Source: a virus
Lineage: Duplodnaviria; Heunggongvirae; Uroviricota; Caudoviricetes
Direction: 5' to 3' (one strand)
IMG/VR virus record: IMGVR_UViG_2531839622_000025
Length of the DNA stretch: 4,099 nt
The position numbers and the translations under genes are program-made. The notes below the pieces were generated by a model. It worked only from the letters and a program-made list of their open reading frames with translations, searched no databases and was not told where the DNA came from. Shown here in pieces: positions 89 to 4,099 of the stretch; positions within the stretch are counted from its first letter, which is position 1; each line of letters begins with the position of its first letter.

Positions 89-1198
89 ATGACCGACACC
101 ACCATGCAATTGCTCAGTCAGAGCACAGACCCCGTGAAAATGCCGGATTTTGATATTCTCGCGGAGGGTAAAACGCTGTCAGGCGTGGCAGAGCGCCTGA
201 TGAGCCTGTCACTGACCGACAACCGGGGATTTGAAGCAGACCAGCTCACCATCACGCTGGATGATGCGGATGGTCAGTTGCAGCTACCGCCACGGGGTGC
301 GCGCCTGACGGTTCTCATTGGCTGGAAAGGAGAACCGCTGACAGAAAAAGGCACTTACATTGTTGATGAAATCGCACACGAAGGACCGCCGGACAGGCTG
401 ACGGTTTCAGCCAGAAGCGCAGATTTTCGGGATGAATTTAACGTTAAACGAGAGGTGTCCTGGCATGATGTGACCGTTGAGCGTGTGGTATCCGCCATCG
501 CTCATCGGTACGGTCTGAAACCGCAAATCAGCGAAATGCTGATGGATATCGAAATCGACCACGCCGACCAGACCGAAGAAAGCGACATGTCCTTCCTTAC
601 GCGCATGGCGGAAATGCTGGGCGCAATCACCACGGTAAAAAGCGGTAATCTGTTATTCATCATGCCAGGCGGTGGCGTGAACGCACAGGGCCAGCCGTTG
701 CCCTCGTTCGCCATCACGCGCAGCAGTGGCGATCGCCATCAGTTCCGCATTGCTGACCGCGAAGCGTATACGGGGGTACGCGCTTACTGGCTTGATCTTA
801 ATTACGGGAAAAAGAAAAAAGTCAGCGTGAAACGCCGCAAACCGCCAAAACCCAAAAAGGAGAAAAGCAGCAGCCGTGAAGGTGATTATATGGAAGGCGC
901 AGAAGGCAATGTGTTTGTGTTACGCAAGACTTATCAGAACGAGCAGGCAGCAAGACGCGCAGCGGCGGCAAAGTGGCAGCAGCTACAACGCGGAGCCGCA
1001 GCGTTCTCCATCACACTGGCACGTGGACGCGCAGAACTCTACCCCGAAATGCATGGCACGGTAACAGGATTTAAAAGCGAAATTGATAATCAGGACTGGA
1101 TTATTGCAAAAGCCGAGCACACCATTGATAACAGTGGCTTTACCACGCAGCTTGAGCTTGAAGCCAAAATCCCGGAATGGATAGCAGAAACAGAGTGA
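89..1198 (+). CDS. D: Phage tail protein D / late control gene D protein (Phage_GPD family; baseplate hub, related to the VgrG N-terminal region)
   Basis: ORF 68..1198; translation contains the block SLSLTDNRGFEADQLTITLDDADGQLQLPPRGARL that I recognise from P2 gpD-family proteins. Start placed at ATG 89 because of the SD-like agggaggg at 77-84; ATG 68 has no SD. Stop TGA 1196-1198. Confidence 0.88.
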   Translation: MTDTTMQLLSQSTDPVKMPDFDILAEGKTLSGVAERLMSLSLTDNRGFEADQLTITLDDADGQLQLPPRGARLTVLIGWKGEPLTEKGTYIVDEIAHEGPPDRLTVSARSADFRDEFNVKREVSWHDVTVERVVSAIAHRYGLKPQISEMLMDIEIDHADQTEESDMSFLTRMAEMLGAITTVKSGNLLFIMPGGGVNAQGQPLPSFAITRSSGDRHQFRIADREAYTGVRAYWLDLNYGKKKKVSVKRRKPPKPKKEKSSSREGDYMEGAEGNVFVLRKTYQNEQAARRAAAAKWQQLQRGAAAFSITLARGRAELYPEMHGTVTGFKSEIDNQDWIIAKAEHTIDNSGFTTQLELEAKIPEWIAETE

Positions 1199-1360
1199 GC
1201 AACTTAAATGTATTAACTCAGAACGGATCAACACACTCACAACATAGAGTCAATATAGCTGCTCGCTTTGTTCCAGCAAGGATGCCTATTTCTAAGGAAA
1301 AACAGAGCAGAAACATATGGTGTTTTCCTACCTGACATCAGGGGTGGTAAGAATCATGCT

Positions 1361-1388
1361 TTGATAACCAATTGATAACTATTATTAT
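1361..1388 (+). promoter_or_regulatory. Putative sigma70 promoter of the cargo gene (-35 TTGATA 1361-1366, 16-bp spacer, -10 TATTAT 1383-1388)
   Basis: Hexamers read directly from the sequence in an AT-rich 225-bp intergenic region; RBS GAGG at 1414-1417 precedes ATG 1424. Contains a TTGATAAC direct repeat (1361-1368, 1372-1379). Confidence 0.35.
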
Positions 1389-1423
1389 ATTAATCTAACA
1401 CCATTGACATAGTTGAGGTTTGA

Positions 1424-2926
1424 ATGAACAAAAAGCTGTATTTATTCCCAGACTCAAACATTTTTCTACAATGCAAGGACTTGACGCAGGTAAATTTTTC
1501 CGAGATTACTGCTTGTGATGAAGTATGTATCATTATTACAAGGCCCATTCAGCAAGAGATTGACCGCCAGAAAGGGCAAGGTAATTCCCGCCTATCCAAA
1601 AAAGCAAGGAAGGCTGCTAGCCTATTTAATCAAGTAGTTGATTCAACTGACATGACTCTTGTTATTCGTGAACGCTCGCCGCGAGTTTTTCTTACCATGG
1701 ATCTAAGCCTGAAACCATGTGAACAGTTATCTGAACAATTGGATTATCAGGAGGCCGACGATCGTTTTGTTGGTATTGCGGCAGGGTATTGCGCTGACGA
1801 TCCAGATTCGGAGGTGGCAATCATTACCAATGATAGCGGTCCACGTTTTTCAGCAATAAAACATAATATAATCTGCTATAAAGTGCCTTCTTCATGGTTG
1901 CTTCCTGCTGAGCCAGATGAAAAGGATAAACAAATTAAATTGCTGGAAGCTAAGCTGAAGCAATTCACTCAGTCTATGCCCGATTTCAGCATTAAAGTAG
2001 CCGATGACGAGCAATTAAATATTGTACTTCCTTATTATACAGCTTTATCTGAATATGAAGTTGATAATTTGCTTTGTCAACTAACGGATGCATTCCCATT
2101 GGTTACAAACTTTGACAATGAACAAACTACCCCACAATCACTAGAAAAAATCATCAAGTCATTTAGTCAACAGGAGTATTTCCCTGTATCAGCAGATGAT
2201 ATTTCTCTTTATAAAGAAAAACATTATCCACTTTGGAAAAAGCAGTGTGAAGAAATACTGAAAAACTGTCATACTCATATTAATCCGAAGGCAATAAAAT
2301 ACCCGCTGTCGTTTTTATTACAAAACACAGGTTATACTATCGCTGAACGTGCTGTGGTAACATTTACAGCAAAAGGAGATTTTCGTCTGTGTGGATTTAA
2401 TTGGGAGATAATGGAAGAGCTGACTGAAAGCAAAAGGATTGACCTACCTTCAGCCCCTACCGCCCCCAAAGGAAAATGGCGTAGTGTATGTGGCGTAACA
2501 GAAAGAATGCCTTACGCTTGGGGAGCTTTGGAAACACCGCTATCCAGTATAATTTCAAAAGAAATTGGTCCTTTGTTATCTCTTACTCCAACAGAAAGGG
2601 ATAAAAACGATTTTTATTATAAAGAAAAGAGAAATGAGCCAGTTCAAGTTGTATCGCTGGAATGCGAAGAGTGGCGTCATCAAGTCAAAGAAGAAATATT
2701 CCCGTTGTTCGTATATACAGCCAACAAACCAAAGAAAGTGAATGGTGCAATTGAGGTGAGAGTTGATGCAAATAACCTTACCAATCCGGTCATTAAAACA
2801 TTTAAATTAAAAATAACTATAGAAGAACATAGTGCATTTTCAACCATAACAGAAATGGTGCAGACATACATTCAAGAGCAGAAGAAAAGACAGAAAAGTT
2901 CTATTAGCGCACAAATCAAAACATGA
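1424..2926 (+). CDS. PIN-like nuclease domain fusion protein (N-terminal PIN fold, ~350-aa C-terminal domain of unknown function); candidate anti-phage / abortive-infection cargo gene
   Basis: 500-codon ORF with good RBS. N-terminus LYLFPDSNIF (D10), QQEIDRQ (E45), EADDRFVGIA (D112/D113) and AIITNDSG (D137) fit the four-acidic-residue PIN signature including the C-terminal T-x-D motif. Visibly AT-rich compared with flanking D and ogr. Lies between D and ogr, which are adjacent in P2 as I recall it. Confidence 0.8.
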   Translation: MNKKLYLFPDSNIFLQCKDLTQVNFSEITACDEVCIIITRPIQQEIDRQKGQGNSRLSKKARKAASLFNQVVDSTDMTLVIRERSPRVFLTMDLSLKPCEQLSEQLDYQEADDRFVGIAAGYCADDPDSEVAIITNDSGPRFSAIKHNIICYKVPSSWLLPAEPDEKDKQIKLLEAKLKQFTQSMPDFSIKVADDEQLNIVLPYYTALSEYEVDNLLCQLTDAFPLVTNFDNEQTTPQSLEKIIKSFSQQEYFPVSADDISLYKEKHYPLWKKQCEEILKNCHTHINPKAIKYPLSFLLQNTGYTIAERAVVTFTAKGDFRLCGFNWEIMEELTESKRIDLPSAPTAPKGKWRSVCGVTERMPYAWGALETPLSSIISKEIGPLLSLTPTERDKNDFYYKEKRNEPVQVVSLECEEWRHQVKEEIFPLFVYTANKPKKVNGAIEVRVDANNLTNPVIKTFKLKITIEEHSAFSTITEMVQTYIQEQKKRQKSSISAQIKT

Positions 2927-3034
2927 GGGTGTACTCAAATAATACAATGCTATAGTAAATCTATAAGTGCATAACTATTTCCTGATCTTTTCCCAAAATA
3001 GATGACAGGATAAAAAACATTCCAATCTTTTACA

Positions 3035-3069
3035 GGCTTTGGATAAATCGTATCAAAGCCTATTTCTTC
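3035..3069 (+). terminator. Weak terminator-like hairpin downstream of the cargo gene
   Basis: ggctttg (3035-3041) / caaagcc (3054-3060), 7-bp stem with a 12-nt loop, followed by tatttcttc. The T-tract is imperfect and the stem is short. Confidence 0.2.
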
Positions 3070-3110
3070 AAGAGTTAAATCACCGCTTTTCGCTCGAAAC
3101 GGACTGGCTG

Positions 3111-3139
3111 TTGGAGTATGAGCCAGAACAACTTAGAAT
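3111..3139 (+). promoter_or_regulatory. Putative ogr promoter (-35 TTGGAG 3111-3116, 17-bp spacer, -10 TAGAAT 3134-3139)
   Basis: Hexamers read from sequence; RBS aagggagg at 3157-3164 precedes ATG 3170. P2 ogr is known to have its own promoter. Confidence 0.25.
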
Positions 3140-3169
3140 AGCCCCTGCACTACGTTAAGGGAGGTCGCT

Positions 3170-3430
3170 ATGTTCCGTTGTCCGCTTTGTGGCGCATCAG
3201 CCCGCATCCGTACCAGTCGTCCGGAAAATGATTCAAACACCGTGCGGCAAAAGTATTACCAGTGTAACAATCTAGAATGCGGCGTATGCTTCTCAACACT
3301 GGAAGCTTTTCATAAATTCACATCGAAACACGCCTCCGGCGTTCACTCTTCAGAAGGTATCCCGTGGCATGAGCTGCCAGCTTCACACAGGGGAAACAAT
3401 CAGATGAGTTTGCCTTTGCCTCAAAATTAA
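3170..3430 (+). CDS. ogr: Ogr/Delta-family zinc-finger late transcription activator
   Basis: 86-aa ORF starting MFRCPLCGASARIRTSR...YYQCNNLECG; Cys-X2-Cys...Cys-X4-Cys arrangement and N-terminal MF.CPLC...ARTSR match P2 Ogr / E. coli OgrK as I recall them. Strong RBS. Located downstream of D as in P2. Confidence 0.88.
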   Translation: MFRCPLCGASARIRTSRPENDSNTVRQKYYQCNNLECGVCFSTLEAFHKFTSKHASGVHSSEGIPWHELPASHRGNNQMSLPLPQN

Positions 3431-3468: not shown

Positions 3469-3490
3469 ACGCGCGGGTGCCTTTCGGCTG

Positions 3491-3703
3491 ATGGTCGGAG
3501 GGAATACCCGAAGGCCAGATGTGGAAAGGCCCCGGAAAACATCTCTGTTTAACCGAGGCCCTAACCGCATTACCTTGACAAGTGAAAGGTTAGCGCCTCT
3601 CCGGAAAAGGAGCAAGTGCTATGTCGCAAAAATCGCTTACGGCCATCACGTTCTGTGTGACGGCAATCCTCATCATCTGGATGTTGCACGGTTCGCTGTG
3701 TGA
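3491..3703 (+). CDS. mok: mok-like overlapping reading frame (translational coupling partner of hok)
   Basis: 70-codon ORF in a different frame that begins upstream of and overlaps most of the hok-like ORF, as in plasmid R1 hok/mok/sok. An alternative GTG start at 3521 is preceded by AAGG. The product is probably not functional as a protein. Confidence 0.35.
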   Translation: MVGGNTRRPDVERPRKTSLFNRGPNRITLTSERLAPLRKRSKCYVAKIAYGHHVLCDGNPHHLDVARFAV

Positions 3704-3761
3704 AATACGGATGAGCTTCTGGGGAGCGGAGTTTGCGGCGTTCTTACAGTGTAAGCAGTAA
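3621..3761 (+). CDS. hok: Hok/Gef-family type I toxin (small membrane peptide)
   Basis: 46-aa ORF MSQKSLTAITFCVTAILIIWMLHGSLCEIRMSFWGAEFAAFLQCKQ: N-terminal hydrophobic helix, SLCEIR and EFAAFLQCK blocks resembling the Hok family (closest in my memory to HokA, ..SLCELHIKQESYELAAFLACK..). RBS aaggag at 3607-3612. Below the length cutoff of the supplied ORF track. Confidence 0.72.
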   Translation: MSQKSLTAITFCVTAILIIWMLHGSLCEIRMSFWGAEFAAFLQCKQ

Positions 3762-3885: not shown

Positions 3886-4029
3886 TGCCCTCACCGCCTT
3901 GAAACAGTGATAAGACTATAAGACAAAGCCCGCAATGTAGCGGGCTTACTCCCCTCACCCTCCACTGAATGTGGACACACAGTGGAACGAAGCGGCATAA
4001 GATATTATAAATCAATCAGTTATTGAAAG

Positions 4030-4055
4030 AAAAAAGGCCGCAGAGCGGCCTTTTT
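4030..4055. terminator. Bidirectional rho-independent terminator
   Basis: aaaaaa-ggccgc-aga-gcggcc-ttttt: perfect 6-bp GC stem flanked by an A-run and a T-run, so it can function on either strand. Confidence 0.6.
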
Positions 4056-4099
4056 AGTTAGATCAGATTACTCGTCTTTGGGCGAAGCGTTTTCGACCC

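Follow-up and report, generated by a model that had tools for sequence, protein, structure and literature searches.

A PIN_4-domain gene inserted between gpD and ogr of a P2-like prophage is a candidate single-gene anti-phage module

In the Escherichia coli prr locus, prrC occupies the X position of an hsdM-hsdS-X-hsdR type I restriction-modification (R-M) operon (PMC3014915), and the PrrC protein is held latent on the restriction complex until it is released by an anti-restriction factor. More widely, embedding within operons such as those of type I R-M and BREX has been used as a guide to defence genes, with a defence function being validated in seven of the nine cases tested by this 'guilt by embedding' approach (10.1101/2024.01.29.577857). 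A one-gene PIN protein of E. coli, DS-3 (WP_022645725.1), reported in the DefensePredictor study, protects against phage in a manner that needs its catalytic residues (PMC13092281), and in P2 the interval between gpA and the portal gene is the main defence hotspot, according to two surveys (PMC9122126; 10.64898/2026.02.27.708500). Here we consider a gene at positions 1424-2926 (plus strand, ATG start) of a 4,099-nucleotide stretch of Caudoviricetes DNA (IMG/VR record IMGVR_UViG_2531839622_000025; hereafter the window). The gene encodes a 500-residue protein comprising a PIN_4 domain followed by a C-terminal module (RefSeq WP_001035743.1, 'PIN domain-containing protein'). Comparison of its sequence and surroundings with those of its relatives makes it probable, with a likelihood that we put at roughly 0.6, that the gene is a self-contained, horizontally mobile, single-gene anti-phage (abortive-infection) module carried as cargo by a P2-like prophage. 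A preliminary description of the window had proposed an anti-phage role; the present analysis bears it out as a candidate, and the context of the homologues adds considerable weight to it.

That genomic context is the strongest evidence for a role in defence. P2-like prophages carry the family at four different cargo or defence sites. A Rahnella relative with 73% identity lies between gpS and gpV, one at 68% identity lies between gpA and the portal gene, an Enterobacter relative lies between the portal gene and gpA, and a more distant relative lies between the integrase and the end of a 186-like prophage. The window copy itself lies between gpD and ogr, without adjacent R-M genes. Outside such prophages, a Pectobacterium relative is located in an integrative conjugative element (ICE), and another relative, in an integrase-rich island, adjoins GajA and GajB of Gabija (E 2.8e-208 and 6.4e-169, respectively). 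The Enterobacter gene adjoins a protein matching HEC-04 (E 3.8e-44); this neighbouring ATPase was considered as a partner and rejected, HEC-04 being a stand-alone system and the gene being on the opposite strand and absent elsewhere.

A scan of one genome per species gave 60 loci, with the gene being intact in 46 genomes. The loci come from Alpha-, Beta-, Gamma- and Deltaproteobacteria, Chloroflexota (many of them Dehalococcoidia), Planctomycetota, Acidobacteriota, Gemmatimonadota, Verrucomicrobiota, Latescibacterota, Binatia and others. Type I R-M genes are present in the flanks in 17 of the 46 species-representative genomes; 11 of the 46, from four or more phylum-level lineages, have the genes co-oriented as hsdM-hsdS-gene-hsdR, and in four or five more the gene is directly 3' of hsdS. 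Frequently the gene begins a few bases before hsdS ends. The slot between hsdS and hsdR is the position of prrC in the prr locus (PMC3014915). A metagenomic locus (L015) has the same embedding between hsdS and hsdR; its type I R-M operon (L015 3600-14020) also has three VapBC-like pairs among the hsd genes, making four PIN-domain genes in total. Other immediate neighbours in the scan include AbiEii (three cases), MNT/HEPN-type pairs (three), ThsB-like TIR proteins (two) and a Fic protein matching PDC-S04. Judged from these loci, the association of the family with defence loci and mobile elements is strong.

The R-M embedding might instead mark an accessory subunit of type I R-M systems, e.g. 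a DNA- or RNA-processing nuclease, with the prophage copies being either strays or partners of the type I enzyme of the host. The position between hsdS and hsdR in 11 of the 46 genomes, frequently with translational coupling to hsdS, speaks for such a subunit. However, most members of the family, including all the enterobacterial ones examined, are not adjacent to R-M genes, type I enzymes function without a subunit of this kind, and the only well-studied occupant of the slot, PrrC, is an independent back-up RNase rather than a restriction subunit (PMC3014915). We consider a subunit role to be very unlikely.

The boundaries of the window copy identify it as foreign cargo in a conserved P2-like late-gene block. 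The left boundary is gpD (89-1198, plus strand; a late gene for the tail/baseplate hub, Pfam Phage_GPD), the DNA of which is 97.7% identical to gene D of phage P88_4B11, and the right boundary is ogr (3170-3430, plus strand; the late-gene activator, from its annotation and a Pfam Ogr_Delta match at E 5e-14). The inserted module (1207-3128, plus strand) consists of an upstream flank of ~0.2 kb, the gene and a downstream flank of ~0.2 kb, and a 7-bp direct repeat, CAACTTA, is present at both junctions, i.e. at 1200-1206, directly 3' of the gpD stop codon, and at 3129-3135, 34 nt 5' of the ogr ATG, such that the pair brackets 1.93 kb of the window. In Xuanwuvirus P88_4B11 and Citrobacter phage Shae_phiSM, from which the insert is absent, D and ogr are 42 bp apart, with the empty site of P88_4B11 having a single CAACTTA copy. 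At exactly the same point Escherichia phage 500465-2 carries an unrelated gene for a 340-residue protein on the opposite strand, together with an imperfect repeat copy, CAATCTAGA; the protein gives a weak match to HEPN_RiboL-PSP (22.5 bits, below the cut-off of 28.4). Because empty, PIN-gene and HEPN-like-gene states are all found at this one point, the D-ogr junction is, from comparison of these phages, a cargo site at which genes are exchanged. We infer that the short repeats could enable deletion of the cargo with restoration of the empty site.

The PIN gene and the HEPN-like gene of 500465-2 (L003) are inserted at the identical nucleotide 3' of gpD, and the ~20-30 bp inside both junctions are alike between the two cargos (window 1199-1225 and 3100-3169; L003 4698-4720 and 6000-6033). 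The 340-residue protein of 500465-2 was considered as a possible DS-3, which is of equal length, and rejected, its N-terminal sequence not being in the DS tables and the two sequences being different. The right-hand repeat, CAACTTAGAATAGC, holds a TAGAAT box ~30 nt 5' of the ogr ATG, on which basis the insertion probably replaces the -35 region of the ogr promoter; a promoter remnant at the left junction may read into the cargo.

The base composition changes at the same boundaries. The open reading frame (ORF) has a GC content of 38.3% (31.9% at third codon positions) and the whole insert 37.9%, as compared with 53.7% (58.1% at third positions) for gpD and 48.3% for ogr, and in a GC profile the fall and recovery match the intergenic boundaries. 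As for other P2-like hotspot cargo ('morons'), a non-core gene of atypical composition lies between core genes and is absent in close relatives, with its expression signals being predicted. The preliminary description had correctly placed the gene as cargo within a conserved phage late-gene block; of its by-eye GC estimates, the high-30s value for the gene and the mid-50s value for D were right, whereas the latter was too high for ogr. The insert was found in 59 of 5,426 complete E. coli genomes, each time with at least 99.8% identity and in 57 of the 59 in the same context as in the window, the strains being mostly O111 with some O157 and O26. The exact protein is present on 864 contigs in a protein collection, and its cluster has Escherichia, Shigella and Salmonella entries, the sole names being 'PIN domain-containing protein' or 'DNA-binding protein'.

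Residence in a late-gene block could alternatively mean that the gene serves the phage, i.e. in counter-defence, in remodelling of host or competitor RNA during lytic growth, or as a regulator of lysogeny or late genes near ogr. The gene is co-oriented with the late genes D and ogr, a terminator scan called no terminator between D and the gene, and anti-defence genes also occur in prophage hotspots. The presence of the family in chromosomal type I R-M operons, with many non-phage contexts, and in an ICE is a misfit with a phage function, as are its four unrelated positions within P2-like prophages and the occurrence of close relatives of the window phage that lack the gene; a function for the phage itself is thus, in our view, decidedly unlikely.

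With respect to the protein, the N-terminal PIN domain (residues 1-155; 1424-1888, plus strand) has D10, E45, D112 and D137 as putative metal-binding acidic residues. Pfam PIN_4 (PF13638) matches residues 10-151 over profile positions 4-128 of 132 (33.9 bits against a gathering cut-off of 21.9, E 4.5e-8), and PIN_4 was likewise matched in seven of ten other family members scanned, with two of the three non-matchers consisting of the C-terminal module only. Among 43 sequences E45, D112 and D137 are invariant and D10 is conserved in at least 90%, and the homologues begin at the same methionine as the window protein. The predicted secondary structure around these residues (strand 4-9, helix 40-50, helix 111-125 and strand 130-135) places the acids at the end of β1, in a helix, at a helix N terminus and after a later β-strand, as in PIN domains, and the predicted fold is of the α/β/α type; the AlphaFold2 model has a mean predicted local distance difference test score of 85.5. 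By these measures the PIN domain is intact, and the PIN signature noted earlier by eye is confirmed by a Pfam score above the gathering threshold.

The C-terminal module (residues 160-500; 1901-2923, plus strand) is predicted to comprise a long helix, a small α/β unit, further helices, a β-sandwich and a terminal helix. Its invariant residues include Y263, Y268, W271, N301, G303, P345, P348, C414, R418, H419 and N451, of which C414, R418 and H419 belong to an ECExWRH motif; C275 and H283 are nearly invariant. It is conceivable that C275, H283, C414 and H419 form a Cys2His2 metal site bridging the helical part and the β-sandwich; their codons are at nt 2246-2248, 2270-2272, 2663-2665 and 2678-2680, respectively. 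No Pfam, NCBIfam or PADLOC model matched the C-terminal two thirds of the protein, in agreement with the earlier statement that no Walker, HEPN, TIR or transmembrane motif was visible there. Searches of solved structures returned no PIN chain, either with the single protein sequence (a chance adenylyl cyclase match at E 0.54) or with the family profile (a chance BBA03 match at E 0.055), and a fold search of BFVD gave template-modelling scores of at most 0.23. An hhalign comparison of the family profile with a VapC of L015 had a probability of 0.4% and was not used for mapping of catalytic residues.

The two parts of the protein have not been found to be shuffled. All 51 homologue clusters are full length, with homologues of 490-520 residues. 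When a profile of the C-terminal module was searched alone against 1.84 billion cluster representatives (50% identity clusters), 1,726 representatives matched at E ≤1e-3 and 775 at E ≤1e-30. Of the top 150 matches almost all are ~500 residues long with the module beginning near residue 160, and in those of the longer matches that were checked PIN_4 is still in front. As nearly all these matches have this length with PIN_4 preceding the module, PIN domain and C-terminal module are, on the evidence of the profile search, one fixed two-part architecture. Among 90 immediate neighbour genes no family recurs except type I R-M subunits, and there is no recurrent small neighbour; within this set the gene has no conserved partner, and the earlier description of a single-gene system holds.

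The signals around the gene are consistent with its independent expression. A ribosome-binding site, AGTTGAGGTTT (1411-1421, plus strand), has GAGG 6 nt 5' of the ATG and is invariant in five homologous loci that are otherwise diverged. Further upstream, a promoter-like region (1346-1388, plus strand) has a TAnAAT-type box at ~1346-1357, which an upstream alignment shows to be conserved in all five loci compared, followed by a sigma-70-like TTGATA-16 nt-TATTAT element (1361-1388) with 10 of 12 consensus matches. A sigma-70-like promoter upstream of the gene is thus plausible. Downstream, ~110 nt after the stop codon, a hairpin (3034-3061) and a U-rich run (3034-3069 overall, plus strand) are probably the terminator of the cargo gene. 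The hairpin is present in both the minimum free energy and centroid folds, conservation of the downstream flank in three loci, including the Rahnella and P0004 loci, is highest in its segment, and base changes on both arms preserve the pairing in the P0004 locus (as judged by eye). The terminator scan missed this hairpin, the loop of which exceeds 8 nt, and the whole 220-nt downstream segment folds no better than shuffled sequences (z -0.57). The promoter region (1349-1366) and the 3' arm of the hairpin (3051-3068) are related as an 18-nt inverted repeat with 83% complementarity, which may be due to chance. With respect to the preliminary description, the ribosome-binding site is borne out; the claim of an own promoter is favoured by the consensus match and the conserved upstream 0.2 kb, but such sites are no more numerous than expected by chance.

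The upstream ~0.2 kb of DNA travels with homologous genes to other sites, as seen at the Rahnella and P0004 loci, and ~0.17 kb downstream is co-mobilised within close clades. Neither flank has an ORF or RNA that is conserved across clades. An open frame of ~60 codons on the minus strand (2960-3130) was considered as a truncated partner gene and rejected, as it lacks a start codon; it is also broken in the Rahnella and P0004 loci, and the similarity extends to all frames. Because there is no conserved ORF in either flank, the mobile unit looks like a promoter, one gene and a terminator.

The co-mobilised flanks bear directly on the possibility that the gene encodes an addiction or stabilisation toxin, i.e. 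a PIN toxin paired with a labile antitoxin (a small RNA or peptide encoded in the flanks), which would, through post-segregational killing, favour stable retention of the prophage or R-M operon. PIN domains are classically those of VapC toxins, the ~0.2 kb of non-coding DNA on each side moves with the gene between sites, VapBC pairs are near the gene in some loci, and the window prophage has a hok/sok module. On the other hand, the flanks have no conserved ORF, their six-frame similarity being the pattern of non-coding DNA, and their conservation is limited to close clades; in many loci the start of the gene is only a few bases from hsdS or an integrase gene, which leaves no space for an upstream partner; and the protein is 3-4 times the size of VapC, with a conserved 340-residue extension. 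Although an addiction function therefore appears to us unlikely, it would overlap with defence, in that many toxin-antitoxin modules act as abortive-infection systems. A small remaining part of the probability, over all the readings considered here, is left unassigned.

For the preferred reading, that of a single-gene abortive-infection module, we infer a scheme in which nuclease activity, an RNA substrate, auto-inhibition, a trigger and an abortive outcome are combined. The N-terminal PIN_4 domain would act as a metal-dependent endonuclease and, like the PIN domains of SMG6 and VapC, would most probably cut RNA, this substrate being preferred to DNA because of the PIN_4/SMG6/VapC relationship only. 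In the uninfected cell the C-terminal helical and β-sandwich module would keep the nuclease inactive. Since an intact PIN nuclease is present without an antitoxin gene, inhibition would have to be either intramolecular or via a host partner, and the C-terminal module is the candidate regulator or sensor because its 340 residues are inseparable from the PIN domain and have invariant residues of their own. An infection cue acting on this module, which might be a phage protein or a nucleic-acid structure, would then release the nuclease, and cleavage of cellular and phage RNA would stop translation and abort the infection, so protecting the lysogen population and thereby the prophage.

In the case of the R-M-embedded relatives, inactivation of the type I restriction complex might serve as the cue, such that these relatives possibly guard the restriction enzyme. 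An extension of this idea is that the family constitutes a second, evolutionarily independent 'restriction guard' beside PrrC, in which the C-terminal module would bind to the type I HsdMS/R complex, the PIN RNase would fire when an anti-restriction protein of the Ocr, Stp or ArdA type disables restriction, and the prophage-borne enterobacterial copies would act in trans for the chromosomal type I enzyme of the host. The extension rests on analogy with PrrC, and we regard it as tentative and rather unlikely; if true, a temperate phage carries a guard for the restriction system of its host.

Several points weigh against a role in phage defence. Many of the R-M-embedded cases are from related Dehalococcoidia metagenome-assembled genomes and are not fully independent, and embedding in R-M operons may be the outcome of selfish co-transfer, with no functional link behind it; counter-defence, toxin-antitoxin and virulence cargo is found in prophage hotspots as well as defence genes. 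No family in PADLOC-DB 2.0.0 matches the window protein at E up to 1, which is in line with the earlier remark that it could not be placed in a named defence family; the HEC series is represented in PADLOC 2.0.0 by the HEC-01 and HEC-04 models at least. Structural likeness of the C-terminal module is to generic β-sandwiches only, such that a role in sensing is a guess, and the promoter is a consensus match only, with such sites in the region being no more frequent than in shuffled sequence (7 against 6.2 expected). INPHARED phage records gave no match to the gene by megablast or tblastn, and we found no published experimental datum for the window protein or any member of the family. A PHROGs search returned only phrog_28495 (E 0.0027, of unknown function), which is uninformative.

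The remainder of the window is in keeping with the end of a prophage, the order being gpD, the ORF at 1424-2926, ogr, a hok/sok-type module and the 3' end of ihfA. The hok/sok-type type I toxin-antitoxin module (3475-3761) is at the prophage end and has a 46-residue Hok/Gef ORF (3621-3761) containing SLCEIR, with an Rfam sok (RF01794) match 5' of it that is below gathering (48.4 bits against 59, E 5.8e-9); in P88_4B11 and 500465-2 this 141-nt ORF is likewise found 3' of ogr, under the annotation 'MokW-like host killing'. The enterobacterial small RNA family STnc540 is matched in part and below threshold (3970-4099, minus strand; 30.4 bits against a gathering value of 38), with the match ending at the window edge and overlapping both the 3' end of ihfA and the region past the prophage end.

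If confirmed, the proposal would add to the single-gene nuclease immune systems a widespread family, with at least 1,700 clusters at 50% identity by the C-terminal profile in Proteobacteria, Chloroflexota, Planctomycetota, Acidobacteriota and other phyla. The hsdS-hsdR slot of type I R-M operons would then have a second RNase occupant with no sequence relationship to PrrC, making the generality of restriction-enzyme guarding directly testable. In P88-like (Xuanwuvirus) prophages the gpD-ogr junction can be recognised as a cargo site at which RNase-type genes are apparently exchanged via short repeats, a site of relevance to Shiga-toxin-producing E. coli of types O111, O157 and O26, which carry the window copy. 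The description of new defence families is now routine; the family size, fixed architecture and PrrC-like slot in this case point to a testable and potentially general mechanism.

Comparison with known systems helps to define what is new. Like PrrC and RloC, the window protein would be a latent RNase without an antitoxin; many of its relatives occupy the exact prrC slot, hsdM-hsdS-X-hsdR (PMC3014915), while some members, like RloC, are unlinked to R-M. In PrrC, however, an ABC-type NTPase at the N terminus is followed by an anticodon-nuclease domain at the C terminus, whereas the window protein has an N-terminal PIN_4 domain, no NTPase motif and an unrelated C-terminal module. Identity with PrrC or RloC is ruled out, as only PIN_4 was found and PADLOC, which according to its authors lists both, gave no match. 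Similarly, DS-3 is one protein with a PIN nuclease and no cognate antitoxin that is presumed to be auto-inhibited until infection, but it has 340 residues with its PIN domain split between the N and C termini, in contrast with the contiguous PIN domain (residues 1-155) and 340-residue module of the window protein; identity with DS-3 is excluded, the best BLASTP E value being 4.4. HEC-03 (Payne et al. 2024) also has a PIN nuclease effector and was found by 'guilt by embedding' (10.1101/2024.01.29.577857), but is a two-gene system of an ABC ATPase and a VapC-like PIN protein, whereas the window has no ATPase gene. The VapBC toxins share the PIN-fold, metal-dependent RNase chemistry and the same pattern of acidic residues, yet VapC has only ~130-150 residues and is always preceded by a vapB antitoxin gene; the window protein, with 500 residues, an assignment to the PIN_4 (SMG6-like) branch and no partner gene, is not a VapC. 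The resemblance to the eukaryotic PIN_4 proteins SMG6/EST1A and Nmd4 is in the catalytic domain only, since these have other partner domains and act in nonsense-mediated mRNA decay.

Among the P2 cargo defences (old, tin, fun/Z and those of the hotspots of Rousset et al. 2022), the likeness is that of an AT-rich accessory gene between P2-like core genes, with homologues of the window gene in the gpA-portal hotspot, although the window protein is unrelated to Old, Tin and Fun. The D-ogr junction is not among the hotspots named in the passages of these surveys that were consulted, with a term search finding neither 'ogr' nor 'gpD' in the 2026 P2/P4 survey and no 'gpD' in Rousset et al. 2022. NCBIfam release 20 (2026) has no model for the window protein, and WP_001035743 was not mentioned in the texts returned by a full-text literature search, nor in the available part of the DefensePredictor tables. 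We found no published name for the family, in a comparison that excludes the post-2023 DefenseFinder models and Brenes & Laub 2025. In its kind the gene would thus belong with systems that are already known, i.e. single-gene, self-inhibited nuclease defences that are often embedded in R-M operons, and what is new, as a candidate, is the combination of PIN_4 with an undescribed C-terminal module.

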